Assembly (NCBI GenBank): GCA_947253625.1
Contig: CAMYAB010000003.1
Location: 107,105 to 171,104, forward strand
Length of the DNA: 64,000 nucleotides
Direction: 5' to 3'
Source: an uncultured Porphyromonadaceae bacterium
Lineage (GTDB): Bacteria > Bacteroidota > Bacteroidia > Bacteroidales > Porphyromonadaceae
Both the position numbers and the translations under genes were made by a program. The notes beneath the pieces were generated by a model. That model saw only the letters and a list, made by a program, of their open reading frames with translations. It did not search any database and was not told the DNA's origin. Of this stretch, positions 6,423 through 49,177 are shown in pieces (position 1 is the first letter of the stretch; each line of letters opens with the position of its first letter).

Positions 6423-7409
6423 TTGAAAATAGGCTCTATCGATCTCGGTCCTCATCCAGTCCTACTTGCACCGATGGAGGACGTCACGGATCAGTCCTTC
6501 AGGTTGCTTTGCCGAGAGTTTGGTTCGGCACTGGTCTACACCGAGTTTGTCAGTGCCGATGCCATAGTCCGCAGTATCCGCTCCTCCCTCACCAAAATGG
6601 TGGTCTCCGACGAAGAGCGTCCTGTGGCCATACAGATCTATGGCAAGGATCCGGACGTCATGGCCGAGGCAGCGCGTATCAGCCAAGAAGCGGGTCCGGA
6701 TCTCATCGACATCAACTTTGGCTGTCCTGTCAAGCGAGTGGCCACAAAAGGAGCCGGGGCAGGTCTCCTACGCGATATTCCACGCATGCTCGATATCACC
6801 AGCGCAGTGGTGGAGGCAGTGCAGCTACCTGTCACGGTCAAGACGCGACTAGGTTGGGATAGCGACAACATCATCATAGAGGACCTTGCCGAACAACTCC
6901 AGGATGCCGGTGCGCAGGCACTCACCATACACGGACGCACCCGTAGCCAAATGTACAAAGGGGTGGCCGACTGGGCACCTATCGCACGTGTCAAGAGCAA
7001 TCCACGCATCCACATACCCATCATAGCCAATGGCGACGTCACCGATGGCGAGAGTGCACTGCGCTGCTACCAAGAGACCAATGCGGACGCCATCATGGTC
7101 GGCAGAGGAGCCATCGGCAGACCGTGGGTATTTGAGGAGATGACCGCCACTCTGAGCGGTTCCACTCCCCCTACACATGATCACAAATGGTACATTGACG
7201 TACTCAAGCGACTAGTAGATGACAGCATAGCCCGATGCGGTGGCGATCGTGGTATCTGGCCCATCAGGCGTCACTTGGCAGCCTCACCGGTTCTGAAAGG
7301 TATCCCCGACTTCAGGCAACAAAGGATTGCCATCCTTCGTGCCGAGACCAGAGAAGAGCTGTTTGGATTGCTGGACCAGGTGCCACCCAGCACCGACTGC
7401 AAGTTCTGA
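6423..7409 (+). CDS. dus: tRNA-dihydrouridine synthase (DusB-like); TTG start
   Basis: LAPMEDVTDQSFR, FGCPVKRV and VKTRLGWD motifs of the Dus FMN TIM-barrel family. Confidence 0.9.
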   Translation: MKIGSIDLGPHPVLLAPMEDVTDQSFRLLCREFGSALVYTEFVSADAIVRSIRSSLTKMVVSDEERPVAIQIYGKDPDVMAEAARISQEAGPDLIDINFGCPVKRVATKGAGAGLLRDIPRMLDITSAVVEAVQLPVTVKTRLGWDSDNIIIEDLAEQLQDAGAQALTIHGRTRSQMYKGVADWAPIARVKSNPRIHIPIIANGDVTDGESALRCYQETNADAIMVGRGAIGRPWVFEEMTATLSGSTPPTHDHKWYIDVLKRLVDDSIARCGGDRGIWPIRRHLAASPVLKGIPDFRQQRIAILRAETREELFGLLDQVPPSTDCKF

Positions 7410-7436
7410 TCCACAACACTTACCTAGGAGACAAAA

Positions 7437-7486: not shown

Positions 7487-8034
7487 AAAATCACTCCCCC
7501 CTACCCTTTTTCCGAAGGTCTCACTTTTTCATACCACCCGGGCATGTTGGTAGAGTGTTAGTAAAGTGTGGAAAACGTGTGGAAAGATTTGGGCTACTTT
7601 TCTTGGTTTATTTTCAGATTTTCTTATGACGTAAAAGAATCAACAGCTCCAAGAAAACAGCAAAAAAGTTATGCACAACTTCTCCACCACTCTTTCCACA
7701 GATTCATCAACATTGATTCATTCGTACCGGACGGGGAAGTCGGCACTTATCCACAGTTTCCACACGTATTATATCCATCCTATCTTTTAGCCCCCACCCT
7801 ATAAGTCCACACAAACAGTTCTTAGCACACAAAAAAATAAGAAGAAAGGTGTTGGGCAAAACGGGTGAGGAGGCAAAAAAAAAGGATGCCCCGGTTTTGA
7901 CGATCTGCTTTGTTACCCTTGCGAGAGCTGCGCCCCAATTACCATCGCCCCACCCTCTACTCAAATAACCAATCATAGGTCTATATGGTTGTCCCAGCCG
8001 GGGGGCCAAAAACAGCTTTTTGGGGGTATTGATA

Positions 8035-8124
8035 ATCAGATGATTACAAGTGACTTTGAGTTTCACGGATAGAAGCAAAACTTTTCACGGATAGAAGCAA
8101 TCGTTTGGACGGATAGAAAAAAGT
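8035..8124 (+). repeat. Copy A of a dispersed ~90-110-bp repeat with three 22-bp-phased TTTCACGGATAGAAGC units
   Basis: tttcacggatagaagcaaaac / ttttcacggatagaagcaatcg / tttggacggatagaaaaaag. Reverse-complement copy at 40009-40119. Confidence 0.85.
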
Positions 8125-8570
8125 GGTTGGTTCGTTTTTCTCCCTCATAAAGGGGGGCAACATTTGTTTCCGAATGTAGTCCTGATGGGAAGAGTGTCTT
8201 GGGTGGGTACGAAATAATTTGTTACATTTGCACTGCTTGTTAGGAAATACAGATTTTTTATACAGACAACATACTATTGTTGATCTGCGTGCGTGTCCGA
8301 TTTTTGGGATGGTGTGCAGTGGTGCAATAGACGACCTATTGCAGATCATTGGTCTGCATAGAATCCTAGGTTTTACCTAGGTGACATGATGTTTATTTTG
8401 TTATAGCCATCTACTTTTTCATTGCTTTTATAAGTAGAGACTTTGAGAGCTCATAGCATGCTTGCTGTGGGTTCTCTTTTTTTTAAGGTGACTGTTGTAC
8501 GACGGTATTCGGCCACGTGACCGAATACCGTCCTCGGTTGCGTGGCTATATAGTTTGTCGTGTGGTGAGG

Positions 8571-16209: not shown

Positions 16210-17267
16210 CCACTCCTCCGACGGACTATAAGCTACGAAAGACTCGACACGAACTGACTCGTGAGGTAAGCGACTACATTACCTTCATCCAAAAGGAGCA
16301 AGGTATCCGGGTATTTGTTGTCGCCGACGAAAATACCCAGTCCCTTCTGCCGGAGTTTCCTGTAGACCTAGTCCTAGGAGCAGGTGAGGAGTACAAGGAT
16401 CTCCGGAGTGCTCATCGTATTTGGCTTAGTATGGCGAGCCGTGGTATCTGTCGCAACGATCTACTGCTTGCCATTGGTGGCGGGACAGTGACCGATATCT
16501 GTGGCTTTGTGGCCGCCAACTACAAGCGTGGTTGTCGCTTGGCCTTCATCCCGACGACACTCCTTGCACTCATCGATGCCTCCGTAGGGGGCAAGTGTGG
16601 GGTGGATCTGCCGATGCAATCCTCAGATCAAAATATCAAAAACTTACTTGGTACCTTTTACCCACCTGAGGTGGTTTTTGGGTGTGTTGAGCTGGTGCGG
16701 GAGTCACGTCACCTATTCCAGGAGGGATTGGCCGAAGCCATCAAGTGCTATTGTCTTTTTTCCAAAGACCCCACAGCCCTCTTCTCAGGGGATTCCGATC
16801 TCTATGAGATGGTACGCCGGTGCATTGAGTACAAGCAGAGCTTGGTGGAGCAAGACCCCTACGATCGGTCGGTGCGTCAGTACCTCAATCTAGGGCACAC
16901 AGTAGGCCATGCACTGGAGGGGCTGGCATTGGCGGAGGGGCGACCGATCTCCCATGGTCGGGCTGTTGCGGCTGGTCTGGTCATAGAGGGATATTTCTCA
17001 TACGTATTGGAGGGCTTCCCGCAGGGGCACCTCCTACGTTTGGGAGAGTGGGTACAGAGTTTTATCGCTCCGGTTCACTTTAGTTGCGACGACTACGATC
17101 GCCTCTGGGCACATGCGCTTCAGGACAAAAAGAACCTCACCAACCCCAAAGGTCAAGTCACCTGCACGCTACTCAAAGACTTTGGCGCACCCCTGTACGG
17201 AGCAGGTGTAGGGCGCAAACTATGGGATGAAGGCTTGGACTTTTACAAGGACTTGATGCGTATATGA
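16206..17267 (+). CDS. aroB: 3-dehydroquinate synthase
   Basis: [47 protein letters not shown] (the DHQS glycine-rich and metal-binding region). ATGA overlap with alaS. Confidence 0.88.
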
Positions 17268-19608: not shown

Positions 19609-20745
19609 ATGAAGCATTACCTATCCCTTCTTTTTGCCTTGCTCCCTCTCTTGGTCTCTTGCCGAGAGGAGGTCAGAGCCTATGATGATCTCCTGACCCC
19701 ACTCTACACTCCGGAGTATGCTTCGGGCTTTGAGCTATATGGGTTGGATGGCTACTCCGGCACCATTATTCGGTCCAAAAATCCTTGGCAGGGTGCCACG
19801 GATGAGGTGAGAGATGTCTTTGTACAACGCGGAGACGAGGAGCCTCCCCGTGGTTTTGAGGGGTGTGTCGTCCCTGCAGATCCTCAGCGTGTCGTGGTAC
19901 TGAGCTCTAGCTACATAGGTATGCTGGATCGCTTGGGGCTGGCGGATCGTGTGGTGGGGGTCAGTGGACTGTCCTACGTGACCAATCCCTACATCAGCGA
20001 TCCTGCGCATGGGGTGCGAGACATTGGCACTGTGCCGGATTATGAGCTACTGCTGAGCCTCAAGCCGGATGTGGTGCTACTCTATGGTCTGGAGAGTGCC
20101 AATACAGTAGTCACGGACAAGCTCGATGAGCTGGGTATCCCGTACATCTACTTTGGCGAGTACCTGGAGGAGCATCCTCTGGGTAAGTGTGAGTGGATCG
20201 TTGTCGTCGGGGAGTTGATGGATCGTCGGGCCGCCGCCGTGGCCTACCAAGAGGAGGTCTGTCACAGGTATCAGGCTGTAAAAGACCTGGCTAGTCGAGC
20301 AGACCACCGTCCCTCTGTGATGCTCAACCTCCCCTACAATGATGTCTGGCAGTTGCCACCGATGGCTTCGTTTCAGACAACGCTCCTCACCGATGCCGGG
20401 AGTAGCCCCTTCTACGGGCGTGAGGAGCGTGGAGTGATGTTGCGGATAGGTATGGAGACAGCACTGGAGTATCTGCAGGAGGCAGACTACTGGTTGCATC
20501 TTGGTATGGTGACCCGCTACGAGGAGTTGCCGGCGAACCTGCGCGAGCACGCCTCCAATATCAAGTCGATACGTGAGGACCACCTCTACAACAACAATCG
20601 TATCTCCAATGCAGCCGGTGGCAATGCCTACTTCGAGACCGGCCCTGTGGAGCCGGATGTGATTCTCTCCGACCTGGTCTCGATCTTTCATCCGGGCCTT
20701 GTCGAGCACAAGCCGGTATACTACCGGCAGATTGCGGTAAAGTAG
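19609..20745 (+). CDS. ABC transporter periplasmic substrate-binding lipoprotein (BtuF/FecB class; iron-siderophore/cobalamin type)
   Basis: Lipoprotein signal (LLVSC). RVVVLSSSYIGMLDRLGLADRVVGVSG is typical of class III periplasmic binding proteins. Confidence 0.7.
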   Translation: MKHYLSLLFALLPLLVSCREEVRAYDDLLTPLYTPEYASGFELYGLDGYSGTIIRSKNPWQGATDEVRDVFVQRGDEEPPRGFEGCVVPADPQRVVVLSSSYIGMLDRLGLADRVVGVSGLSYVTNPYISDPAHGVRDIGTVPDYELLLSLKPDVVLLYGLESANTVVTDKLDELGIPYIYFGEYLEEHPLGKCEWIVVVGELMDRRAAAVAYQEEVCHRYQAVKDLASRADHRPSVMLNLPYNDVWQLPPMASFQTTLLTDAGSSPFYGREERGVMLRIGMETALEYLQEADYWLHLGMVTRYEELPANLREHASNIKSIREDHLYNNNRISNAAGGNAYFETGPVEPDVILSDLVSIFHPGLVEHKPVYYRQIAVK

Positions 20746-20777
20746 CTTTTTGTCCCCCCTCTCTCTCTTTTGATCCC

Positions 20778-21782
20778 GTGGCTGTTTTGGACCCAAAGTC
20801 TCGTCTTCGCCTTTTATTCCCTCTCTTGGCACTAGCACTTGTCCTGCTGACCCTTGTCGACTTGATGGTCGGTGATCGCCTGTGCACCCCGTGGGAGCTT
20901 GCGCACGCACTCTGTACGGATGGCGACCCCACACTCCGGCATATCCTGCTCTCCGTCCGGGGGACACGGACGGTGGTGGCGGTGCTGATAGGGATTGCCC
21001 TTCCGCTCTGTGGGCTGATGATGCAGACGGTCTTTCAAAATCCCCTGGCAGATCCCTACATACTGGGAGTAAGCAGTGGTACTGGGCTGGGAGTGGCCCT
21101 TTTTGTTCTCGGGGTGCCGTTGCTGGGGTTGCCTATCAGCAGCCTAGGGGTACTGGGGTCGGGCTTTTTGGGTGCACTGGCTGTGGTGCTACTGATCTTG
21201 ACTCTCAGCCGGCGGATTGGCAATATATTTGGGGTGCTGATCATTGGGGTGATGCTCAGCTATGTGGTCTCCTCTGTGATCCAAATCCTCCAATACTACT
21301 CCTCGGCAGAGCAGTTGCGACTTTTTACCCTCTGGAGCCTGGGCTCGCTCGGTGGGGTGACTCGCACTCAGCTCTCTGTGATGTTGCCGATCCTACTCCT
21401 CGGTGTCGGCACCACGATTGCCTCCATCAAGTCGCTCAACCTCCTACTCCTCGGGGACTACTATGCCGAGAGTATGGGGCTCAATATCCGTCGCAGCCGA
21501 CTCCTCATCCTAGGCAGTACCGCTCTGATGACCGGTGCGGTCACCGCCTTTTGTGGTCCGATAGGCTTCATCGGACTGGCCGTCCCTCACGTGGCACGCT
21601 ACCTCGTGCGGAGTGCGGATCATCGGGTACTGCTACCGGCGACAGCACTCCTCGGCAGCTGCGCCATGCTCCTGTGCAATACGCTGGCAAAGCTCTTCTT
21701 GATCCCGATCAACTCTGTCACGGCACTCCTAGGGGTGCCGATCATACTCGGAGTGATACTCAAGCAGCTCAACTACCGCTGA
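20778..21782 (+). CDS. FecCD/BtuC-family ABC permease
   Basis: About 9 TM segments. The ADPYILGVSSGTGLGVA and LLLGDYYAESMGLNIRRSRLL motifs match the FecCD family. Confidence 0.8.
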   Translation: MAVLDPKSRLRLLFPLLALALVLLTLVDLMVGDRLCTPWELAHALCTDGDPTLRHILLSVRGTRTVVAVLIGIALPLCGLMMQTVFQNPLADPYILGVSSGTGLGVALFVLGVPLLGLPISSLGVLGSGFLGALAVVLLILTLSRRIGNIFGVLIIGVMLSYVVSSVIQILQYYSSAEQLRLFTLWSLGSLGGVTRTQLSVMLPILLLGVGTTIASIKSLNLLLLGDYYAESMGLNIRRSRLLILGSTALMTGAVTAFCGPIGFIGLAVPHVARYLVRSADHRVLLPATALLGSCAMLLCNTLAKLFLIPINSVTALLGVPIILGVILKQLNYR

Positions 21783-21819
21783 CCCACCACCCCTCTCTCC
21801 CTCCTTCCAAAAAGACACC

Positions 21820-22578
21820 ATGCAGCTCCACCTCGATCAGATCACAGTCGGCTACCCGGGGCATCCGCTTGTCCCCACCGCCTCAGCGAACCTCTCCTCC
21901 GGCTCACTCACCGCACTCCTTGGGCGCAATGCGGCCGGCAAGAGTACCCTGCTCCGCCATATCTCCGGGGCACTCCCATTGCTTGGTGGATGCATCACAC
22001 TGGATGGGCAAGATACCGCAGAGCTCTCGCCTCATGAGCGTGCATTGCTGATCAGTGTGGTCAATACCAAAAGGGTACGAGACCCCCTCATGACGGCCAC
22101 TGACCTGGTCGCACTCGGACGATCCCCCTATACCGACTGGATGGGAACGCTAAAGGAGAACGATCGAGAAAAAGTGGACGAAGCACTGCGACTCACCGGC
22201 ATGTCCGGACACGAGAGACACACCCTGGCGACCATGAGTGATGGAGAGCTGCAGAGAGTGATGATCGCACGAGCCTTGGCCCAAGATACACCGGTGATTT
22301 TGCTGGACGAGCCTACCGCCTTTTTGGACCTCCCCAATCGCTACGAGATTGCTCTCCTGCTACGTGAGATAGCACACCGACAGCAGAGGCTCATTATCTT
22401 CAGCACCCATGAGCTGGACATTGCCTTTCAGCTCTGCGACTTGATCCTACTCTTGTCGCCCCCTGAGCTTTACCACCTACCCACCCCCGATATGGCCGAG
22501 TCCGGCCTGGTGGATCGGCTCTTTGAGGGCCCCAATGTGCGCTTTGACAGCCGGACCGCCCGCCTCTACTTCAAGTAG
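21820..22578 (+). CDS. ABC transporter ATP-binding protein (FecE/BtuD-like)
   Basis: Walker A LLGRNAAGKSTLL, signature MSDGELQRV and Walker B VILLDEPTAFLD. Confidence 0.85.
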   Translation: MQLHLDQITVGYPGHPLVPTASANLSSGSLTALLGRNAAGKSTLLRHISGALPLLGGCITLDGQDTAELSPHERALLISVVNTKRVRDPLMTATDLVALGRSPYTDWMGTLKENDREKVDEALRLTGMSGHERHTLATMSDGELQRVMIARALAQDTPVILLDEPTAFLDLPNRYEIALLLREIAHRQQRLIIFSTHELDIAFQLCDLILLLSPPELYHLPTPDMAESGLVDRLFEGPNVRFDSRTARLYFK

Positions 22579-22634
22579 GCAAAAAAGGACTGCTCCCCGG
22601 CCATCTCGGTACGGACAAATAGGAAAAACCCGAT

Positions 22635-22828
22635 GAGCGGGGGCGAAAAGTACTCCCCATGTAGATCCAAACTTTTTCCTCCGGTCGAAAAAGTCCAAAT
22701 CACACTGTGATTTATTCAGATCACTATGTGATTTATTCAAATCACTAAGTGGTTTCTTCAAATCACACAGTGATTTTATCTTTTTCTCCGACACACGTAC
22801 CTTTTTCTCCGACACGGTCGTTTTTTTC
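22635..22828 (+). repeat. Left 194-bp inverted repeat (IR-C) bracketing the MacB-type exporter operon
   Basis: Reverse complement of 28807-29000 with only 2 mismatches. Contains four 21-bp palindromic units (atcacactgtgat…) and two tttttctccgacac units. Confidence 0.9.
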
Positions 22829-22842
22829 AAGGGGAAAAAAAC

Positions 22843-22850
22843 TATCTTTG
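22843..22850 (+). promoter_or_regulatory. -7 box TATCTTTG between IR-C and the exporter ATPase gene
   Basis: TAnnTTTG match. The predicted transcription start falls after the ORF-track ATG (22854), which supports a downstream start for the ATPase. Confidence 0.45.
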
Positions 22851-22934
22851 TAGATGCCGAGCTTGCGGTGTGTCCCGTATCAGCGACTCTATGAGTGTCC
22901 ACCTTGTACGGTGTGCACAGTGGTGACCAACATT

Positions 22935-23615
22935 ATGATAGCTATGAATCCGGTAATCGAGATCAATGATCTACACAAGACCTACCCCGGAGTGCAGTCT
23001 CTGCATGTCCTCAAGGGGGTTTCACTGCGCATAGACAATGGGGAGATGGTGGCTCTGATGGGGGCCAGTGGATCGGGCAAGAGTACGCTCCTCAATATCC
23101 TCGGGATACTCGACACGTATGATGCAGGCTCCTATCACCTGAGTGGCAAGCTGATTCGGGATTTGGACGAAAACAGTGCGGCCGAGATGCGGGGACGGCA
23201 TATTGGTTTTGTGTTTCAGTCGTTTAATCTCATCAGCTTCAAGAACGCCCTAGAAAATGTGGCTCTGCCACTCTACTACCGAGGGGTCTCCCACAAAGTG
23301 CGCAACAAGCTGGCAGAGGAGTATCTGGACAAAGTGGGGCTTCTGGACTGGAAGGAGCACCTCCCGAATGAGTTGTCGGGCGGACAAAAGCAGAGAGTCT
23401 CCCTGGCAAGAGCACTGATCACCAAGCCGACCATACTCCTTGCCGATGAGCCCACCGGAGCCCTGGACAGCACGACCACCATAGAGGTGATGAATCTGCT
23501 GAGGCAGGTGAATGAGGAGGAGGGTGTGACCATGCTCATCGTCACGCACGAGCCGGCGGTGGCTGAGTGCTGCGAGCGCACGATACACATCAAGGACGGA
23601 CTGATCGTCCGATAA
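22935..23615 (+). CDS. MacB/LolD-type ABC transporter ATP-binding protein
   Basis: Walker A GASGSGKSTLLNILG, signature LSGGQKQRVSLARAL and Walker B LLADEPTGALD. The ORF extends to 22854, but the conserved N-terminus starts at MIAMNPVIEINDL. Confidence 0.85.
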   Translation: MIAMNPVIEINDLHKTYPGVQSLHVLKGVSLRIDNGEMVALMGASGSGKSTLLNILGILDTYDAGSYHLSGKLIRDLDENSAAEMRGRHIGFVFQSFNLISFKNALENVALPLYYRGVSHKVRNKLAEEYLDKVGLLDWKEHLPNELSGGQKQRVSLARALITKPTILLADEPTGALDSTTTIEVMNLLRQVNEEEGVTMLIVTHEPAVAECCERTIHIKDGLIVR

Positions 23616-23623
23616 GGAGGAGG

Positions 23624-24916
23624 ATGAGGATGAGAGTGCCTTTTTTTCAAGAGCTGATCAACTCCCTACACAACAACGTCCTCCGGACCCTCCTCACCGG
23701 CTCGACGATAGCCTGGGGCATTACTCTGCTCATCGTGCTCTTGGGCGTGGGCGACGGGATCGAGAAGGGTATCACCCACACGGCCTACTCGACAGGGCTG
23801 GGGGATGTGCAGATGTCTCTCTATCTCAACAACGCCAATCGCCCCTACGGCGGGTACCAGGATGGGCGGGATCTGTACCTCTCGTCCCGACAGGTGCGGC
23901 AGCTGCAGTCCGCTCAGGCGGCTCGCTACAGAGCGATAGAGCCCTGTTTTCAGAAAATAGGCAACATGGTCAGCACCGCCTATGGAGAGTCGGGGATGAT
24001 GATCGGGACCATCACGGCGCGTGAGCAGATGTTCAACCAAGAGAGGTTGCTTGCGGGGCGACTCTTTACGCCTCGGGAGCATGAGCAGGCAGAGCGAGTG
24101 TGCCTTTTGCCGGACTATGAGGTGTCGCGACTGTTTGTGTCGGGGCAGGACCCGATAGGGCAGAGTGTGATCGTGTGGGGGGTGTCGTTTCGGGTCGTGG
24201 GGACACTGGAGTATAGCAACCCCTACATGGGGATGATGAAGATTCCGTACAACACGTTTGTCGCCCTTTTCCCCAACGATGTCCTGAAGTACAAGATGCT
24301 GAACCTCTACCCTGTCACGAGGGATCAGGAGCTGCTGGCCCAGTGTGAGGAGGAGCTCAAAGCGGATGTGCGCCGTATGCTGACCGTGGATCCACAGGAC
24401 GACCTGTCGGTGACTGTCAGGAGTACGTCAAGTGCGGAGAATGCGATGGCAAAGGCTTTTGTCGGCCTCAAGATCCTACTCTGGGTGATGGGTGTGGGGA
24501 GCTTGTCGATAGGCACGATAGGAGTGACCAATATCATGAGTGTCACGGTCGAGGAGCGTCGTCGCGAGATCGGCATCCGCAAGGCAATAGGCGCTCGCCC
24601 GAGGGATATCCTCACGCTGGTCCTTGGCGAGAGCCTGCTCTTGTCACTCTTTTTCGGAGTGATCGGCATAGGGGTTGGCTACCTGTCGGTGGATATCATC
24701 GGTGACATGGTCGCTCGGCACGGCTGGGCCTCACGACCGATAATGATGGGACTGGACAGCACGACGCAGATCACGATCTTTCGGGATCCGCAGGTCAGCC
24801 CCGGGATGGCTCTTGGGGCTCTGTGCGTACTGGTCATCGCCGGATTGTGGGCCGGCTATGGACCGGCCAAGAAGGCGGTCAGGATACCTGCAGTGGTGGC
24901 TATGAGGGACAAGTAA
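23624..24916 (+). CDS. ABC transporter permease, FtsX/MacB family (1 of 2)
   Basis: N-terminal TM, a large periplasmic MacB-PCD-like domain and a C-terminal FtsX 4-TM domain with IGIRKAIGA. GGAGG RBS-like sequence before the ATG at 23624. Confidence 0.75.
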   Translation: MRMRVPFFQELINSLHNNVLRTLLTGSTIAWGITLLIVLLGVGDGIEKGITHTAYSTGLGDVQMSLYLNNANRPYGGYQDGRDLYLSSRQVRQLQSAQAARYRAIEPCFQKIGNMVSTAYGESGMMIGTITAREQMFNQERLLAGRLFTPREHEQAERVCLLPDYEVSRLFVSGQDPIGQSVIVWGVSFRVVGTLEYSNPYMGMMKIPYNTFVALFPNDVLKYKMLNLYPVTRDQELLAQCEEELKADVRRMLTVDPQDDLSVTVRSTSSAENAMAKAFVGLKILLWVMGVGSLSIGTIGVTNIMSVTVEERRREIGIRKAIGARPRDILTLVLGESLLLSLFFGVIGIGVGYLSVDIIGDMVARHGWASRPIMMGLDSTTQITIFRDPQVSPGMALGALCVLVIAGLWAGYGPAKKAVRIPAVVAMRDK

Positions 24917-24925
24917 GCAGGCAAC

Positions 24926-26206
24926 ATGATGATGAAGCGGTTTTTGAATCACGAAGTACGTCAGGAGATCTGGTACACGATCCGCGCCAATAAGCGTCGC
25001 ACACTGATGACAAGCCTGGGGGTCTTTGCGGGGATGTTTTTCTTCACCTTCCTGACCGGCATTGGGCAGGGGATCGAAAACTCCATCAGAGCCAATCTGG
25101 AGACCAGTTCGTCCGAGATGCAGATGATTTTTGGCTCTCGCACCACAATGCCCTACCAAGGCTACAAAGCCAATCGGCAGATCACGACCACCTATGGCGA
25201 CTTTCTCGCCCTAAAGAAGCAAGCGACCCTTATCGACAAAATAGAGGGGACAGCCGGATTTGGAGGCAGAGTGGACTCAAACACGACACGCGTAATAGCC
25301 AATGGTAAGAGCCAAGAAGAAAACGTCCAAGGGGTGTCCGCCGGCTACATACCCAATATCCTCCAAGCCATCGTGGTAGCCGGCCGATACATGCATCCCG
25401 ACGAGATCGACAGAGGCGAAAACATCTGCGTCATCGGGACAAACACCAGTGTGAAGTTCTTTGACACCTACGAGGAGGCAGTGGGGCAGTACATGATCAT
25501 ATCCGGTATCGCTTTTAGGATCGTTGGAGTGATGACACCCTACTCCGATGCCGCAAATATCGGATTCAACCTCAAGTACGTCACCTTGGTACCCCTTGTC
25601 TTTGCAGTCAACAACTCCCCCAACGCCGCCTGCCAGTTCCCATTTGTCCGCAAGCCCGGTGTGACTCCGGATGCCGCCGCCGATCAGATGATCACCCTCC
25701 TCTCCGCCCGCCACCATGTGCATCCGGAGGACAAAAAGGCCTTTGTGACGGTGAGTATGCAGATGATCACTCGTATCTTTGAGATGGTGGTCAACGTCAT
25801 CAATGTCCTAGTCTGGGTAGTCGCACTGGGCACGCTCTTCTCTGGAGTAATCTCTGTGTCCAATATCCTCCTCGTCACAGTCAGAGAGCGACAGCGCGAG
25901 ATCGGAGTGCGGCGCGCCATCGGTGCCAAGCCGTCGGATATCCGCTGGCAATTCATGCTCGAGTCCATCCTCATCATCCTCCTTGCCGGATCAGCGGGAA
26001 TGCTTGTGGCGCTGACCCTGAACCTCGGGATCGGGGCCCTGGCTGATGCGACACAGCTGGGAAACTTCATCCAAGCCCCATACCCGTCGCCACTCATGAT
26101 GGTGCTCTCGGTCATCATCATGCTGCTATCCGGACTGCTGGCCGGACTGCTACCGGTACACCAAGCACTAAAAATCAAGGCAATAGACGCCATAAGAGAC
26201 GAATAA
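24926..26206 (+). CDS. ABC transporter permease, FtsX/MacB family (2 of 2)
   Basis: Same architecture as the first permease. Conserved REIGVRRAIGAKPSDI. Confidence 0.75.
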   Translation: MMMKRFLNHEVRQEIWYTIRANKRRTLMTSLGVFAGMFFFTFLTGIGQGIENSIRANLETSSSEMQMIFGSRTTMPYQGYKANRQITTTYGDFLALKKQATLIDKIEGTAGFGGRVDSNTTRVIANGKSQEENVQGVSAGYIPNILQAIVVAGRYMHPDEIDRGENICVIGTNTSVKFFDTYEEAVGQYMIISGIAFRIVGVMTPYSDAANIGFNLKYVTLVPLVFAVNNSPNAACQFPFVRKPGVTPDAAADQMITLLSARHHVHPEDKKAFVTVSMQMITRIFEMVVNVINVLVWVVALGTLFSGVISVSNILLVTVRERQREIGVRRAIGAKPSDIRWQFMLESILIILLAGSAGMLVALTLNLGIGALADATQLGNFIQAPYPSPLMMVLSVIIMLLSGLLAGLLPVHQALKIKAIDAIRDE

Positions 26207-26234
26207 TAATCCCCAAAATATCCCCCCAAAAGCT

Positions 26235-27356
26235 ATGGCAAAGAATAGCAAAAGCAAAGTAATCTCCATCCTCCTCCGATGCCTCGTCGGCTTAGTGGCC
26301 ATCGGCATACTCGGGCTGGTCCTCTCCAAGTCCAAGAAAAAAGAAAACGAGTACGAGCTACTGAGCCCCACACCGGGTGACAGCATCATTCACAGCACCA
26401 TCCTGACCGGCAATATCCAGCCTCGAGACGAAGTGCTTGTCAAGCCACAGATGAGCGGTATCGTGGCTGAGCTGCTGCACCTACCGGGCGATATGGTCCG
26501 CGAGGGGGATCTGATAGCACGCATACGTATGATCCCGGACGTAGCCTCCGTCCAAAACGTAGCCTCACGAGTCGAGAGTGCGCGAGTGGCGCTCCGCACA
26601 GCATACGATGTCTACCGCCGCGACAGCCTGCTGATGGCCCAAAACATCCTCTCCGCAGAGCGCTACGAGCAGAGCAAAGGAGCCTACGACCGTGCGGTCA
26701 TCGACCTCGTCACAGCACAGGAGCAACTACAGCTGGCCAGCAAAGGATCCAGCAACCGCACCGCCAACCAAAACAACACCCTCGTCCGCGCCACAGTGAG
26801 TGGGGTCATCCTGGATCAACCCGTGAAAGTCGGATCCAGTGTCATCCAGGCCAACAACTTCAACGAAGGCACCACCATCGTGAGCATTGCCGACCTAAAC
26901 GACCTCCTTTTTGTCGGTAATGTCAACGAAAGCGATGTCAACAAAGTACAGGTAGGAGCTCAAGTCCGCCTCAAGGTAGGCGCCATCACCGGCCGGACCT
27001 ATCCCGCAATCGTAGAGTACGTCTCTCCCAAAGGCAAAGAGACCACCGGCACCATACTATTTGAGGTCAAGGCGGCCCTACAAGCCGGTGACCTCAGCGA
27101 CCTCAAAGCCGGATTTTCGTGCAACGCCGAAGTGGAGCTAGACCGTCGCACAGACGTCCTGACCATCCCCGAGAGTGCCATCTCCTACGAGGGCGACCAA
27201 GCCTACGTCTACCTCTCCAATGGAGGCAACACCGACAGTAGCTTCACCAAGCATGCCATCCAAGTCGGCCTCTCCGATGGACTAAAAATCGAAGTCCTAT
27301 CCGGACTGAGTGGCACAGAAAAGCTCCGTGGAAACCTACTCAGCATCAAAAAATAA
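26235..27356 (+). CDS. HlyD/MacA-family periplasmic adaptor (membrane-fusion protein)
   Basis: N-terminal TM, coiled-coil segment and a lipoyl/beta-barrel MFP fold (…RATVSGVILDQPVKVGSSV…). Confidence 0.75.
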   Translation: MAKNSKSKVISILLRCLVGLVAIGILGLVLSKSKKKENEYELLSPTPGDSIIHSTILTGNIQPRDEVLVKPQMSGIVAELLHLPGDMVREGDLIARIRMIPDVASVQNVASRVESARVALRTAYDVYRRDSLLMAQNILSAERYEQSKGAYDRAVIDLVTAQEQLQLASKGSSNRTANQNNTLVRATVSGVILDQPVKVGSSVIQANNFNEGTTIVSIADLNDLLFVGNVNESDVNKVQVGAQVRLKVGAITGRTYPAIVEYVSPKGKETTGTILFEVKAALQAGDLSDLKAGFSCNAEVELDRRTDVLTIPESAISYEGDQAYVYLSNGGNTDSSFTKHAIQVGLSDGLKIEVLSGLSGTEKLRGNLLSIKK

Positions 27357-27363
27357 GCCGACC

Positions 27364-28731
27364 ATGAGACCAGCCACCCACACCCTACTCCTCCTAGCGC
27401 TCCTCCTTGTACCGGCATCCCTATCGGCCCAGGAGCTCAAGCCCACCATGACCCTCGTGGAGTGCGTCGACTATGCACAGGCACACAGCCCACTGCTCCT
27501 ATCACTCGACCCCAAAATCGAGAGCATGCGACTAAACGAAGCTCTCGCCACGCAAGCCTTTTTGCCCAACCTCAACGCCGGACTTGGACAAAATGCTTCC
27601 TTCGGCAGATCGCAGGGCAAGGATGGCGTCTTCCGTGACCTCTCCAACACCAACACCTCCCTATCCATCTCGGCACAGCTGGACCTCATACAAGGCGGTG
27701 CCAGGTGGTGGAGCCTGAAAAAAGCCAAAGAGACCCTCAAGACCACAGACTACCTCATCGCCGACACCAAGGACAACATCGCACTCAAGACCACCCAAGA
27801 CTACATCACCCTACTCCTCGCAAGGCAGATGGTCACAGTGGCAAAAGAAAACCTCACCCTCTCCGAACAACAGCTCCACGAGACAGAGCGGCAGGTCACC
27901 GCAGGCAAGCTACCCGTCTCCAACCGTATTCAGGTACAGAGCCAAGTCGGACAAGCACGACTCACACTAGCCGAGGCCGAGGCCGATGCCGAGCGAGCCA
28001 TGCGCCTACTCCTTCTGGGAATGGGCGTCACCGATCGTGCCACCACCCTCACCACACCACAGTACGCCATCGACCAAGTAGCCACCCACAACGACCAACT
28101 CTCCACCTGCCGGCGAGACCCACTATGGGTACGACCCGATACACGACTAGCCGAGCTCAACGCCAACCTAGCCGACTACGACATCAAGCGTGCCAAAGCA
28201 GCCTACTGGCCAGCACTCTCGCTCAACGCCGGATACTCCAACGGCTACTACTACAACTTTGGCACCCACCTCCTCACAAGCACCAACATCCCCTTTGCCG
28301 ACCAACTCCGCCAAAATGGACGAACCTACGTCGGACTCTCACTCACCATCCCCATCTACAACAGAGGACAGCTCCAAGGACAGGTACGACAAGCCAAGCT
28401 CCTACAAATGAACCTCCGGACACAGTACATCCAAAAATCCTACCAAGACGAGCAAAACATACTCCTAGCCGAGTCCGACCTCCAAAAAGCACAAGGGCAG
28501 TGTACCCTATCGGCCGAAAACCTCAACCTCACACGCCAAGCACTCAATATCGCAGACCTGGAGTACCGAGCCGGCAAGATCACAACCTACGAGTGGGAGC
28601 AGGCCAAAAACAAACACATACAGGCACAAATACAGTACGCCACGTCCGTCTACACGAGGTTGCTCAGGAGCATCACCCTCCGATACTTCTATACCGGCCG
28701 ACTAGACTTCTCCGAGGTATTAGCCGACTAA
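27364..28731 (+). CDS. TolC-family outer-membrane efflux protein
   Basis: Signal peptide and two tandem TolC repeats (…LTLVECVDYAQAHSPLL… and …ADLEYRAGKITTYEWEQ…). The ATG at 27364 follows the HlyD stop. Confidence 0.8.
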   Translation: MRPATHTLLLLALLLVPASLSAQELKPTMTLVECVDYAQAHSPLLLSLDPKIESMRLNEALATQAFLPNLNAGLGQNASFGRSQGKDGVFRDLSNTNTSLSISAQLDLIQGGARWWSLKKAKETLKTTDYLIADTKDNIALKTTQDYITLLLARQMVTVAKENLTLSEQQLHETERQVTAGKLPVSNRIQVQSQVGQARLTLAEAEADAERAMRLLLLGMGVTDRATTLTTPQYAIDQVATHNDQLSTCRRDPLWVRPDTRLAELNANLADYDIKRAKAAYWPALSLNAGYSNGYYYNFGTHLLTSTNIPFADQLRQNGRTYVGLSLTIPIYNRGQLQGQVRQAKLLQMNLRTQYIQKSYQDEQNILLAESDLQKAQGQCTLSAENLNLTRQALNIADLEYRAGKITTYEWEQAKNKHIQAQIQYATSVYTRLLRSITLRYFYTGRLDFSEVLAD

Positions 28732-28806
28732 TCCTCATACCACACCCTTTTTCCCCATCATTCGCACCAAGCAGAGAAGGGGGGCTTTTTTTTGAGAAGC
28801 AAATGG

Positions 28807-29000
28807 GAAAAAAACGACCGTGTCGGAGAAAAAGGTACGTGTGTCGGAGAAAAAGATAAAATCACTGTGTGATTTGAAGAAACCACTTAGTGATTTGAAT
28901 AAATCACATAGTGATCTGAATAAATCACAGTGTGATTTGGACTTTTTCGACCGGAGAAAAAAGTTTGGATCTACATGGGGAGGACTTTTCGCCCCCGCTC
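28807..29000 (+). repeat. Right 194-bp inverted repeat (IR-D), reverse complement of IR-C
   Basis: 192 of 194 positions identical to the reverse complement of 22635-22828. Confidence 0.9.
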
Positions 29001-29053
29001 GTTGAGTTTTTGGAGTTGGTGTGTTGCGGTGAAAGTGGGTAGGCTCAATTTAC

Positions 29054-29095
29054 AAAGGGTGAGCTTTCGGACGAAAGCTCACCCTTTGTCTTTTT
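29054..29095 (+). terminator. Rho-independent terminator downstream of IR-D (plus strand)
   Basis: AAAGGGTGAGCTTTC-GGAC-GAAAGCTCACCCTTT stem-loop followed by GTCTTTTT. Confidence 0.75.
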
Positions 29096-29156: not shown

Positions 29157-31559
29157 TTAGCGCACGGAGAAGAAGAGCTTGTAGGTCATCATCGGTGTCA
29201 GGCCCTGTGTGTACATTGTCGAGTAGTCGCCCTTGCCGGGATCAAATAGGATGGACATGACGTTTTTGCGGTTGGTCACGTTTTGTAGGTCCAGTGCCCA
29301 CTCTTGGGTGATGCGCCGGCTTATCCGGCGAGTGCCTATCTTTAGGTCCGCACGGAGGTAGGACTTGGCTTGGTGGGCATTGACTTGGGTCGTGTCGAGT
29401 CCCGGTACCTCTCGCCCCTCCTTGTCGGTGGTTATTCGTATGGGCGTGTAGCGGGTCCCTCCGGCACATGACGCTTTGAGGTCTGCAAAGAGAGCCCAGT
29501 GACGGGGTAGCTCCCACTCATACCCACCGGTGAGGTTGATCAGGTAGCGGCCATCGAAGAGGGTGCTCCACCACTCTTTTCGGAATCCGGTGGTATAGGT
29601 GGATCTGTAGAGTGATGTGTTGAGGAGGAGGTAGTAGTTGTCACCGAAAAACTTCTCCACCGTGAGCTCCACACCATAGTTTCGACCCCGTCCTTTGTTG
29701 ACCAGGTTGCTCTGGCGCTCTAGGTAGTTTTGTCCGGCACCTCCGAGCTCCAGGAGTGTCCATATAGAGTTTGGGTCATTGACTACCGGCACTCGGTACA
29801 GCTCCTGATAGTAGCCCTCTATCTTGGCATGCCAGTCGGGTGCAAAAGCCCAGTCGTAGTAGAGATCCATCTGGGCACTGCGGGTGAAGTCGACCTTTTG
29901 GTTGCGGTATTCGATACCTTTGGGGCTGTAGTGGCGTATGAAGTAAAAGGAGTGCGGGAGTATCTGGCTGTAGAGCCCGGCTGCAAGTCCTATGGTGTGC
30001 GAGCGATCCGGCCGGTATTGTAGGCCCATACGGGGCTCGACGGTGTAGCGATGATTGATCGAGAGATACATACCATGCACTCCCATGGTGGCGGTCCAGT
30101 GGTCTCCTATATGCCGGCGATACTGTCCGTAGGTGCGCACCATGCCATAGTGCGGGCGCTCCTCGGTAAGCGTCTTCACTCCGCGAGCAAACTTGCTGTC
30201 GGCCACTTGCTCCAAGTAGTGTGCGCCAAAGAGGTCGCCTTTGATCCCCGCCACCACCAATCCCTCACGAGTGGGGTGCCACGTGAGCTCCGAGCGTAAG
30301 GTCCACCTATTTTCCAGTGCGGCCTCCGCCCATAGGAGGTGCCACGTATCTGAGGGGTCTCTCCGGAGGCTCATGGTGTCCACCGGCATGCCGGTATCCG
30401 AGCGTACAAAGGAGAGCTGTGTGCGGAGAGCTGTGCGAGGCGAAAACTGCACCTCGTGTGTCAGCCCGGCTACGTAGGCTGTCGAATTGATCGCTATGCG
30501 CTGTGCGAAGGAGAGCTTGTCGTAGTCGCTCCCCTCTCCCAGCTCATTGGTCGCAAAGTGTATGTGACTCTTGCTGAACAGACCGACGAAGGAGAGGGTC
30601 TGCCCATGGCCCAAGTCAAAGTGAAGTTTCGTCGTGAAGTCCTGATAGCGCGGGACGAAGGGCATCCTGACCCCCATGGCGTGCATGATATCAGGGATGG
30701 AGTAGCGATAGGAGGCTAGGTAGGAGGATTGACTGCCCTTGCGCAGGTAGCCCTCGGCCCCGAGCTCCAGGCCCCCAAAGCCTGACTGTAACCAAAACTC
30801 TTGTCGCTCCGGATTGCCACGGCGTAGCTCTAAGTCAAAGATTCCCGAGAGGGCATTGCCATAGGTCGCCGGCCAAGCGCTCAGGTGAAAGTCCGAGTTG
30901 GTCAGCAGATTGGTATTCAGATAGCTCACCTGCCCACCGGTCATGCCGACGCCGGTATTGAAGTGGTTGGGGTTGCTGATCTCGATCCCATCCAGCAGCC
31001 ACTGCACTCCGGTAGGCGAGTTGCCGCGAATGATGATGTCGTTGCGAGAGTCGTTGACGGGCATGATGCCGGCAAAGCTACGGACCATGCGAGCCGGATC
31101 ACCCAGCGAGCCGGCAAAGCGGTACGCCTCCTCGACGCTGAAGCTACGTGCTCCGGCCAGGCTAAGCCGATTGGTGGGGACACTCTTGTCGTATGGGGCT
31201 GTGACGACTACCTCTCCGAGCTTGGTCTCTGTGGGTGTCAGGACTATCCGGAGGACACTCTGCTTGCCGGCTACGACGAGTAGCTCCACATCCTGCGACT
31301 CATATCCTACGCAACTGACCAATAGGGCGTTGCGGCCAACAGGCAGCCGGAGCGAAAACTTTTGGTCCACACCGGTAACCGTGCCTATGGGTGGGTTGCT
31401 CCCACGCCGCACGACCGTGGCTCCGATGATTGTGTCGCCGGGTAGTGCGGAGACGATCTCTCCACGCACCTCTTGGGTGAATGGTGCTTGAGCCCTCAGC
31501 TGAGTCGATGAGGCAAGAATAGGAGTGAGCAGTAAGAAGAGTCTAATGAAGTGTCGCAT
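29157..31559 (-). CDS. TonB-dependent outer-membrane receptor (N-terminal carboxypeptidase-regulatory-like domain)
   Basis: Signal peptide and plug-domain motifs. C-terminal beta-barrel ending …YKLFFSVR with a terminal aromatic region. Met22 (31559) chosen over the ORF-track start at 31622. Confidence 0.8.
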   Translation of the reverse strand: MRHFIRLFLLLTPILASSTQLRAQAPFTQEVRGEIVSALPGDTIIGATVVRRGSNPPIGTVTGVDQKFSLRLPVGRNALLVSCVGYESQDVELLVVAGKQSVLRIVLTPTETKLGEVVVTAPYDKSVPTNRLSLAGARSFSVEEAYRFAGSLGDPARMVRSFAGIMPVNDSRNDIIIRGNSPTGVQWLLDGIEISNPNHFNTGVGMTGGQVSYLNTNLLTNSDFHLSAWPATYGNALSGIFDLELRRGNPERQEFWLQSGFGGLELGAEGYLRKGSQSSYLASYRYSIPDIMHAMGVRMPFVPRYQDFTTKLHFDLGHGQTLSFVGLFSKSHIHFATNELGEGSDYDKLSFAQRIAINSTAYVAGLTHEVQFSPRTALRTQLSFVRSDTGMPVDTMSLRRDPSDTWHLLWAEAALENRWTLRSELTWHPTREGLVVAGIKGDLFGAHYLEQVADSKFARGVKTLTEERPHYGMVRTYGQYRRHIGDHWTATMGVHGMYLSINHRYTVEPRMGLQYRPDRSHTIGLAAGLYSQILPHSFYFIRHYSPKGIEYRNQKVDFTRSAQMDLYYDWAFAPDWHAKIEGYYQELYRVPVVNDPNSIWTLLELGGAGQNYLERQSNLVNKGRGRNYGVELTVEKFFGDNYYLLLNTSLYRSTYTTGFRKEWWSTLFDGRYLINLTGGYEWELPRHWALFADLKASCAGGTRYTPIRITTDKEGREVPGLDTTQVNAHQAKSYLRADLKIGTRRISRRITQEWALDLQNVTNRKNVMSILFDPGKGDYSTMYTQGLTPMMTYKLFFSVR

Positions 31560-31684
31560 AGTACCTTGAGTACGTTGTTGAATAGCGTAGACAAAGGTAC
31601 AAACACATGAGTGCCCCAACAATATTTTAGACTTGTTTTTTCCGTCCCTCTGACCTCCAAGTCTGATCCGAATAAAGGCTACTA

Positions 31685-39740: not shown

Positions 39741-40008
39741 ATACTATACTGTCTTCTACATGTTGGGCGTGTTGCGCCAAGCACCACTCTTCCGCATTCA
39801 CCGAAGTCCTGCTCCGAATCCGGTCCGGAGCAGATCGCTTGGGCGCAACAGTCTCGTAATAGTGATACAAATATACCAAACAATTATCGACCAATCGTTT
39901 CCCCACTTGCCCCCCTACGAGACTGTCGAGAGGAGCCTCTGCCGGTGCGACTCCTCCGAGGGGTGTCGGAGGGGCTTTGGGGGTATGGACAAACCGAGGA
40001 ACGTTTTT

Positions 40009-40119
40009 CCCTCTATCCGTCTGAGTGATGGCTTCTATCCGTGAAAAGTTTCGCTTCTATCCGTGAAAACTTTTGCTTCTATTCGTGAAACTCGAGGTGC
40101 TGTGTAAGTATTTGATTGT
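40009..40119 (-). repeat. Copy B of the TTTCACGGATAGAAGC-array repeat (reverse orientation relative to copy A)
   Basis: On the plus strand: cttctatccgtgaaaag ×3-4 with 22-bp phasing. The reverse complement aligns with 8035-8124, including about 35 bp of flank. Confidence 0.85.
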
Positions 40120-40396
40120 CAGTGCCCCTACCGGAAAGTCGCCTTTTTCCCCGAAAATCACCCTCCTTTTCCCTCCTCCGCCCCTCAAAAAAAAGGGGGC
40201 GGTGGTCGTCTCTCCCGAGGGGTGTCGTTTGGGGGGCAGAGTGTGCGATACATTGGCCCGAATGGGGCGTCCGGACAAGGGTGTTTTTTCCTAAGGTCGG
40301 AGAAAATTGGTACCTTGCGACCGGATCTGTGGGGTCGTCCTTGGCTCGACCAAAGCCGACTCCCCGGATTTGGATGTTGCACTAAGAAAAAAAAAG

Positions 40397-48977: not shown

Positions 48978-48996
48978 TCTCTCTGCTCGGAACTGC

Positions 48997-49060
48997 AGTT
49001 TCTACGGAGTGAAACTACAGTTTCTACCCGTTGAAACTGTAGTTTCACTCCGTAGAAACT
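48997..49060. repeat. 28-bp perfect inverted repeat (hairpin) with 8-nt loop
   Basis: agtttctacggagtgaaactacagtttc | tacccgtt | gaaactgtagtttcactccgtagaaact. No flanking U-run on either strand. Confidence 0.8.
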
Positions 49061-49177
49061 CTAGTTTCATCCTCAGAGGAGACTTTTGGACATCAAGGGG
49101 TGCGGAAAAGAAAAAGGCCACACCGAGTTATCAAAAACGCTCGGTGGGCCTTGCTGTTTTTGGGATGTACCCCTTTT

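Follow-up and report, generated by a model that had tools for sequence, protein, structure and literature searches.

We analyzed a 64,000-nucleotide stretch of DNA from an uncultured Porphyromonadaceae bacterium (contig CAMYAB010000003.1, positions 107,105 to 171,104; hereafter the window), in which an operon for a MacB-type ABC exporter is enclosed by two near-identical inverted repeats, here called the arms. We conclude, with a probability of roughly 60%, that each arm is a copy of an intergenic repeat dispersed in Bacteroidales and that the pair does not form the termini of a transposable efflux cassette. The same architecture was found at more than 140 other loci, mostly in Bacteroidales metagenome-assembled genomes (MAGs), usually as solo copies and in every orientation. 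One copy of the element lies in each of the two spacers flanking the operon, in opposite orientation. In the mechanism that we propose, proximity-dependent gene conversion and/or recent local duplication would account for the two arms being about 98% alike, and homologous recombination between the 205-bp inverted repeats would be able to flip the 6-kb operon.

Architecture and distribution of the repeat element

The repeat finder reported the arm pair as 205 nt long, 98% complementary and spaced by 5978 nt. A base-by-base count of positions 22635-22828 against 28807-29000 gave two mismatches in 194 bp (A/C at 22652/28983 and C/T at 22678/28957), in agreement with the initial annotation of this DNA, which had described a 194-bp inverted repeat with two mismatches; a direct count over the full 205-bp arms gave five. 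The G+C content of the arms is 0.40, compared to 0.55 for the window. Both arms recur in two further assemblies of the same species (L001 and L039), and the left arm recurs in a third (L040), whose contig stops short of the right arm. Since the arms are present in independent assemblies, they are not an assembly artefact. Neither arm was missing from any of these strain assemblies where its position was covered, so that no presence/absence polymorphism was seen. The L040 contig belongs to the SPAdes assembly ERZ14212432 and terminates within the TolC gene (window about 27688-28687), and the next contig of that assembly (L051) begins, by coordinate arithmetic, about 120 bp ahead of the right arm; these positions place the assembly gap inside TolC and not at the repeat.

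An arm is laid out on a strict 21-bp register, which corresponds to two helical turns. About three A-tract flank units are followed by four dyad-symmetric units of the form AAATCAC-N3-GTGATTT and then by mirror-image T-tract flank units (Table 1). The palindromic pattern matched the window nine times, compared to 2.07 matches expected, and eight of the nine fell in the two arms. The inner flank unit CTTTTTCTCCGACAC matched four times against 0.12 expected, each time within an arm. We consider an arm probably to be a non-coding, quasi-palindromic intergenic repeat element of about 205 bp.

The symmetry of the core units was analyzed in a set of 78 units. Mirrored positions were complementary in 80.5% of cases, compared to 71.3% in shuffles, and double changes numbered 85, against 41.5 +/- 4.5 expected. 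Complementarity reaches the central columns (10/12) on either side of the unit midpoint; as a hairpin loop would be unable to pair these columns, a double-stranded dyad for a symmetric dimer fits better than a hairpin of RNA or of single-stranded DNA. Judging from the sequence, and with low confidence, four dyad sites on one face of A-tract-bent DNA could be a candidate platform for several protein dimers. Resemblances to parS, matS and lambda operators were also considered; these are only half-site resemblances with a different spacing, and no similarity is claimed.

The distribution of the element beyond this locus was determined with the pattern ATCACNNNGTGNTTTNNNNNNATCACNNNGTG, which spans two adjacent units and was scanned against one genome per species for 185,579 species. 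The scan returned 33 loci, where we estimate about 4 by chance (about 1.2e12 positions / 4^19), and 23 of the 33 were in Bacteroidales MAGs labeled Prevotellaceae/Prevotella, Bacteroidaceae/Bacteroides, Parabacteroides or Bacteroidales. In the Bacteroidales MAGs the arrays are intergenic and mostly consist of exactly four units, and their flanks are phased relative to the array, with GAAAA at -11/-32/-54 and TTTTC at +6/+27/+49. The genes next to the arrays are unrelated to one another: NAD kinase, ABC ATPase, TonB-type outer-membrane proteins, GH115, LemA, subtilase, aldose epimerase, PurL, HU-HIG, PNPase, RecJ, PGK and NamZ, and one array lies between convergent methylmalonyl-CoA mutase and Tex genes. 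In several MAGs, copies were found on three to four contigs each, and the alignments among three copies in one Prevotellaceae MAG, in both orientations, span 155-211 bp at 87-92%. When two Prevotellaceae species are compared at orthologous positions, the core array is about 92% identical and the A-tract positions are kept, while the remaining spacer has diverged.

The same pattern found at least 120 more loci in metagenome contigs. Among the metagenome matches listed, arrays of four units were the commonest (50 of 122), and those of five units came next (22 arrays). A near-fixed unit number argues for a function, most simply that of a protein-binding platform. The initial annotation had held that a repeat occurring as a common intergenic element at many loci would speak against its interpretation, and at the level of the family this is what we observed: a dispersed intergenic element at many loci, next to unrelated genes.

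At least 23 copies were found in one assembly set (FLNU01 contigs 527-602, G+C content about 0.54). Here the flanks consist of mirrored 21-bp units with the consensus ctGCACTnnAAAcTT on either side of the core, which gives the complete element a length of about ten phased units. The FLNU01 copies lie in 9 divergent, 10 tandem and 1 convergent gene contexts; pooled contexts, with the window arms excluded, amounted to 13 divergent, 18 tandem and 4 convergent, a distribution that was not significant in a chi-square test calculated by hand (p about 0.1). With regard to MITEs (miniature transposable elements bounded by inverted repeats), the flank modules mirror each other, but the ends of the element are fuzzy. 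The idea of an iteron of plasmid or phage origin was rejected, since blastn gave no match in 72,556 plasmids and 2.9 million viral contigs yielded one chance match. The family is apparently undescribed; no description of it was found in the literature that could be searched.

Proposed homogenization of the arms and orientation of the operon

Across strains, the left and right arms have sequence variants in common. Background divergence between strains is 0.55% over 21 kb. The L039 left arm differs from the right arm of the window by 3 mismatches in 207 and from the left arm of the window by 5 or more, and in both L039 and L040 the outer 20 bp of the left arm carry the right-arm version. An A/G variant in the loop of unit 3 is spread across both arms, and the sole difference between the window and L001 in 21,281 bp, at position 28888, falls within the right arm. 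Such mosaic sharing of variants fits the pattern expected from gene conversion, as read from the assembled sequences, and the suggestion of ongoing conversion in the initial annotation is consistent with the L039 left arm and with position 28888.

Copies in FLNU01 indicate how alike members of the family are in general. Over 253 copy pairs the median alignment was 108 bp at 88.5%, and the sole near-identical pair (240 bp, 98.3%) was also the sole pair lying just 4.3 kb apart. The near-identity of the window arms is thus what nearby copies show and not a family-wide state.

This close FLNU01 pair is on contig FLNU01000554 (L057 9016-9255 and L139 616-855) and is in direct orientation. Genes for a TPR-aspartyl protease and an AAA_21/AAA_15 ATPase are enclosed by the pair, together with small open reading frames; N6_N4 DNA methylase and Fic genes come after the bracketed segment, and the region resembles an accessory or defence island beside ileS-lspA. 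Directly upstream of the first copy, at L057 8508-8892, an 87-bp sequence is repeated in tandem about 4.4 times at 97-99% identity.

The closest relatives of the permease are from uncultured Porphyromonadaceae-like organisms, the nearest at 70% amino-acid identity. The operon of the nearest genome (GCA_900120395.1, locus L035) is flanked by the same genes as that of the window, and there are no arms. By tblastn, the orthologs of the flanks were an uptake system at 71-78% and a DUF6198 fragment at 84%. Both flanks point inward in both genomes, and relative to them the operon of L035 has the opposite orientation to that of the window, with the orientation breakpoints falling in the two spacers that hold the window arms. 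The initial annotation had proposed to look in orthologous genomes for the operon without its inverted repeats or in flipped orientation. L035 shows both; the opposite orientation is a positive hint for inversion, and the lack of arms speaks against a mobile cassette. Because the operon is at the same locus in L035 without arms, it was not delivered there as an arm-bounded unit; either it was present at the locus before the arms arose, or the arms were later lost in the L035 lineage.

L035 and four more distant relatives provide five other genomic contexts in which the operon is conserved as a unit. None of the five has 21-bp arrays, and each has its own box of the form TAnnTTTG, which is the Bacteroidetes -7 promoter consensus. 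In each of the more distant relatives the operon has other neighbors. In the window, the -7 box and the T-run that follows TolC are both located between the arms, so an operon flip should leave expression unchanged. At L035 7335-7738, beside the operon, the DUF6198-cytidylate-kinase gene is represented by no more than an N-terminal fragment (about 140 aa), and the outer-membrane-protein gene of the window is missing, so an additional rearrangement or deletion has taken place at that junction in the L035 lineage.

Alternative explanations and known repeat systems

Several observations weigh against a dispersed repeat whose paired copies promote inversion. Within-genome dispersal is represented by only two copies in the approximately 70 kb at hand for the window organism; an extra 5.4 kb to the left of the window held no further copy, a subfamily-specific metagenome scan gave no more copies from the window species, and the 61-aa open reading frame through the arm, used as a query, matched no predicted proteins. 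The window and three other strain assemblies have the operon in one orientation only. Outgroup polarization of the inversion failed, since the operon neighbors differ in every more distant relative, and with its truncated DUF6198 gene the L035 lineage was rearranged as well. The single-base difference at 28888 lies inside a repeat and may have been introduced by the assembler. Finally, the pair around an accessory-looking segment on FLNU01 contig 554 keeps alive the idea that pairs bracket cargo.

One alternative is an efflux cassette, mobile or invertible, whose arms would be the ends acted on by a transposase or site-specific recombinase supplied in trans. A near-identical 205-bp inverted repeat exactly at the operon boundaries, the different orientation of the operon in the nearest genome, its different genomic contexts in more distant relatives and the second near-identical pair around the 4-kb segment in FLNU01 all speak for such a cassette. 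However, the FLNU01 pair is direct rather than inverted, the family has more than 140 members that are usually solo copies without bracketed cargo, the orientation is the same in every strain assembly, and the nearest genome has, in place of an empty site, the armless operon between the same genes. As the initial annotation had noted, there is no target-site duplication, the outer flanks of the arms (...AAATAGG on the left, GGAGTTGG... on the right) sharing no direct repeat, and Pfam and the gene tables revealed no transposase, integrase or recombinase among the genes of the 64-kb window. With homologous operons armless in L035 and in the distant relatives, no duplication and no recombinase, the non-autonomous mobile efflux cassette offered in that annotation is not supported and we consider it quite unlikely. 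We regard it as equally improbable that the arms are an operon-specific regulatory module, with arrays acting as operators at both ends and looping the intervening 6 kb. Cooperative operator arrays such as paired ARG boxes and the looping lambda OL/OR are well established, and the palindromes spaced by 21 bp resemble them, although in resemblance only; in addition, the left arm covers the -33 region and stops 16 bp before the -7 box. Against such a role, the homologous operons in the five other contexts lack these arrays, and family members adjoin unrelated genes and are even found between convergent genes. The right arm is without a promoter box; it faces the operon 3' end, between the T8 run and the hairpin terminator of the convergent gene. 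Copies within one genome also share their flank modules, which indicates copying rather than independently evolved operators. The second suggestion of the initial annotation, a regulatory module placed at both operon ends, is therefore unlikely in view of the homologous operons without arrays and the position of the right arm at the 3' end.

It could also be argued that the element acts at the RNA level, as a transcribed long hairpin that serves as terminator, insulator, processing site or small RNA. Both strands indeed fold far better than shuffled sequence, at -57.4 kcal/mol (z = -4.8) and -60.8 kcal/mol (z = -3.9), in a predicted structure with pairing of units 1-2 to units 3-4 and of GAAAAAG to CUUUUUC; however, palindromic tandem arrays fold well by construction. 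Strand asymmetry between G:T and A:C mismatches was suggestive in a few arrays, but it is confounded by the shared ancestry of the units. The dyad symmetry passes through the unit centre, where a hairpin cannot use it, and the TCAC/GTGA core is conserved across families in sequence and not merely in pairing, although the search pattern itself demanded this core. Placement bears no fixed relation to the direction of transcription, and no match in Rfam 15 reached its gathering score, the best reaching 20-25 bits against gathering scores of 42-82 with only microRNA and snoRNA noise below threshold. We therefore doubt that the element works as an RNA. A chance duplication or assembly artefact without biological meaning is hardly credible: metagenome assemblers can create or collapse repeats, and the sole difference between the window and L001 sits in the repeat, but the arms, with variants specific to each strain, recur in independent assemblies from different assemblers (L001 and L039 for both arms, L040 for the left) and their internal architecture matches the family on many unrelated contigs. 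A bolder extension of the dispersed-repeat interpretation, speculative and on balance rather unlikely, is that the arms represent an undescribed "4 x 21" cis-element, occurring throughout Bacteroidales, that nucleates a complex of four dimers along a single face of intrinsically bent DNA, and close pairs of which would be functional bookends, in recombination or insulation, for gene modules. If this is true, the present operon (an inverted pair, which can flip) and the defence-like segment of FLNU01 contig 554 (a direct pair, which can excise) would be examples.

The element was compared with known repeats of related and more distant bacteria. BrickBuilt (and MITEPgRS/464) of Porphyromonas gingivalis is a MITE-like intergenic element containing a minisatellite (PMC4596501). 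It comes from a related lineage within the Porphyromonadaceae, is non-coding, always intergenic and next to unrelated genes, occurs in tens of copies per genome and consists of a leader, a run of tandem repeats without spacers, each about two helical turns in length (23 nt in BrickBuilt, 21 nt here), and a tail. The arms share this modular design, which is also of the BOX type, in having a spacer-less central tandem module and distinct flank modules in an intergenic position. There is, however, no sequence similarity between BrickBuilt and the arms. The bricks are non-palindromic and number from 1 to 22.8, whereas the units described here are dyad-symmetric with a count near four, and the IS5-type terminal inverted repeats of BrickBuilt (GAGACCTTTGCA) are absent from the arms. 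BrickBuilt is confined to P. gingivalis and P. gulae, while the present architecture occurs in MAGs labeled Prevotellaceae, Bacteroidaceae and Parabacteroides and in the window organism. PINSR of Prevotella intermedia is a 188-bp intergenic repeat without terminal inverted repeats or transposase that is present in about 180 copies per genome, at positions largely conserved between strains, and was found at inversion and translocation breakpoints between two strains (PMC4755523). Like the arms, PINSR (about 190 bp) is a non-coding intergenic repeat from a Bacteroidales lineage, but it was rejected as the same family, on a comparison by primers, because its published primer sequences are unrelated. 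P. intermedia was absent from the loci returned by the species-genome pattern scan.

Structured repeats are also dispersed through the genomes of other phyla. The BOX elements of Streptococcus pneumoniae are modular boxA-boxB(n)-boxC intergenic repeats with a variable central tandem module, and the REP/BIME elements of enterobacteria are clusters of palindromic units; both can give rise to rearrangements, and nucleoid proteins or gyrase bind to some of them. A 5' GTAG is characteristic of REPs, which have a link to RAYT transposases. BOX and REP sequences differ from those of the present element, at whose unit ends no GTAG motif was found, and neither is known to keep a strict 21-bp phase over about ten units around a core fixed at four palindromes. 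In the invertons of Bacteroides, a promoter a few hundred bp in size is enclosed by short inverted repeats (about 10-30 bp) and flipped by a tyrosine or serine recombinase, which is usually encoded nearby. The window resembles them in that DNA bounded by inverted repeats, in a genome of Bacteroidales, differs in orientation between genomes. Here, in contrast, 205-bp repeats enclose a whole operon with its promoter and no recombinase is present within 64 kb; since promoter and operon are enclosed together, a flip would not switch expression, unlike in an inverton.

We advise against annotating the inverted repeat as a transposon or reading it as a sign of mobile efflux genes. The arm pair marks a spot prone to gene conversion and inversion, and such repeats break assemblies and seed rearrangements. 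We consider the repeat family of gut and rumen Bacteroidales, with its unusually rigid design, a more interesting result than the operon, and the putative binding protein of the array, once identified, could reveal a new layer of chromosome organization or regulation in an important group of gut bacteria.

The exporter locus and other repeat arrays

Pfam confirmed the five-gene exporter content described in the initial annotation: an ABC ATPase, permeases with MacB_PCD and FtsX domains, a HlyD adaptor and an OEP/TolC factor are encoded together, as expected of a MacB-type efflux operon (Table 1). As in MacAB-TolC, the ATPase, the FtsX permease with a MacB core, the HlyD adaptor and the TolC-like factor belong to one operon. 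E. coli MacB is a fused protein, whereas here the ATPase forms a polypeptide of its own and is accompanied by two permease paralogs; this five-gene layout is kept in the relatives examined. The DUF6198-cytidylate-kinase gene comes after the CarboxypepD_reg outer-membrane-protein gene on the right side. A sigma-70 promoter scan of the region was uninformative for Bacteroidetes.

Table 1. Coordinates of the arms, their modules and the surrounding genes and signals in the window
Feature	Position	Strand	Basis and remarks
Left arm, copy of the ~205-bp repeat element	22624..22828	+	Repeat finder and direct count
Outer flank module, left arm	22624..22695	+	A-tract motifs GGAAAAAC, GCGAAAAG, TCGAAAAAG on 21-bp register
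Core, four tandem 21-bp palindromic units	22696..22779	.	Starts at 22696, 22717, 22738, 22759
Inner flank module, two 21-bp units of CTTTTTCTCCGACAC	22780..22821	+	Mirrors the outer A-tract units; then T-run
Hairpin T7-CAAGGGG-A7 across the inner end of the arm	22822..22842	+	Strain comparison
Right arm, second element copy, inverted	28807..29011	-	Palindrome array 28856-28939; CTTTTTCTCCGACAC units 28814-28855
Outer flanks of the arm pair			...ACAAATAGG on the left, GGAGTTGGTG... on the right; no direct repeat
Junctions			Native GGTACGGACAAATAGG-(arm)-CAAGGGGAAAAAAACTATCTTTG; predicted inverted GGTACGGACAAATAGG-(arm)-CCATTTGCTTCTCAAAAAAAAGCCCC
Left neighbor, ABC uptake system (Peripla_BP_2, FecCD, ABC_tran)	19609..22578	+	Pfam; orthologous to operon-flanking genes in the nearest genome
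Promoter -7 box TATCTTTG	22844..22851	+	Fits TAnnTTTG; 16 bp past the left arm, inside the bracketed segment
ABC ATPase	22854..23615	+	PF00005; gene callers start at 22854 or 22911
First MacB_PCD + FtsX permease	23567..24916	+	Pfam PF12704 and PF02687; called start 23630
Second MacB_PCD + FtsX permease	24926..26206	+	Pfam PF12704 and PF02687
HlyD-family membrane-fusion protein (HlyD_D23/HlyD_3)	26235..27356	+	PF16576/PF13437
TolC-like outer-membrane factor (OEP)	27310..28731	+	PF02321; called start 27448
Weak GC stem then T8 run, 3' of the TolC stop	28754..28794	+	Terminator-like; absent from terminator scan calls
Hairpin terminator, 17-bp stem, of the convergent outer-membrane-protein gene	29052..29089	.	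Terminator scan
Right neighbor, convergent CarboxypepD_reg-domain outer-membrane protein	29157..31622	-	Pfam, gene table

The hairpin at the inner end of the left arm varies between strains. Its 7-nt loop (hairpin 22822-22842) reads CAAGGGG in the window and in L001 and CCCCTTG in L039 and L040, which is a small hairpin-loop flip polymorphism just upstream of the operon -7 box.

The region had been described in the initial annotation as otherwise free of repeats, which is not correct, as three further intergenic arrays with a 22-bp period are present in the window. Two of them belong to a second family with the unit TTTCACGGATAGAAGC (8023-8130 and 40007-40128); they are inverted relative to each other, 31.9 kb apart and 79% alike, and a third copy of this family lies between an HmuY-like gene and mutS just outside the window (L047 5017-5097). 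The remaining array (48991-49068) is palindromic (AACTGCAGTTTCTAC...) and located between convergent RNase HII and GH92 genes, with arms at 48991-49027 and 49030-49066 that are 92% complementary.

Further arrays were seen in related genomes. L035 has copies related to the TTTCACGGATAGAAGC family, with a 44-bp period (GCTTCTATCCGTCAAA plus the palindrome TTTCCTACTGGAAA), at 6929-7019 and 16964-17054; they are inverted relative to each other, 89% alike, and enclose DUF6198, the MacB operon and the uptake genes. Two more arrays are specific to their lineages. Porphyromonadaceae bacterium W3.11 carries repeats of GTTTCCTATAGGAAAC at about 44 bp upstream of its operon (L045 about 7330-7420, L046 1-60). 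Another lineage (L036/L043 19244-19332) carries a 23-bp tandem array of CCCGGTCCGTATCTCGCGATCGT in 3.7 copies, with single copies upstream of its MacB operon.

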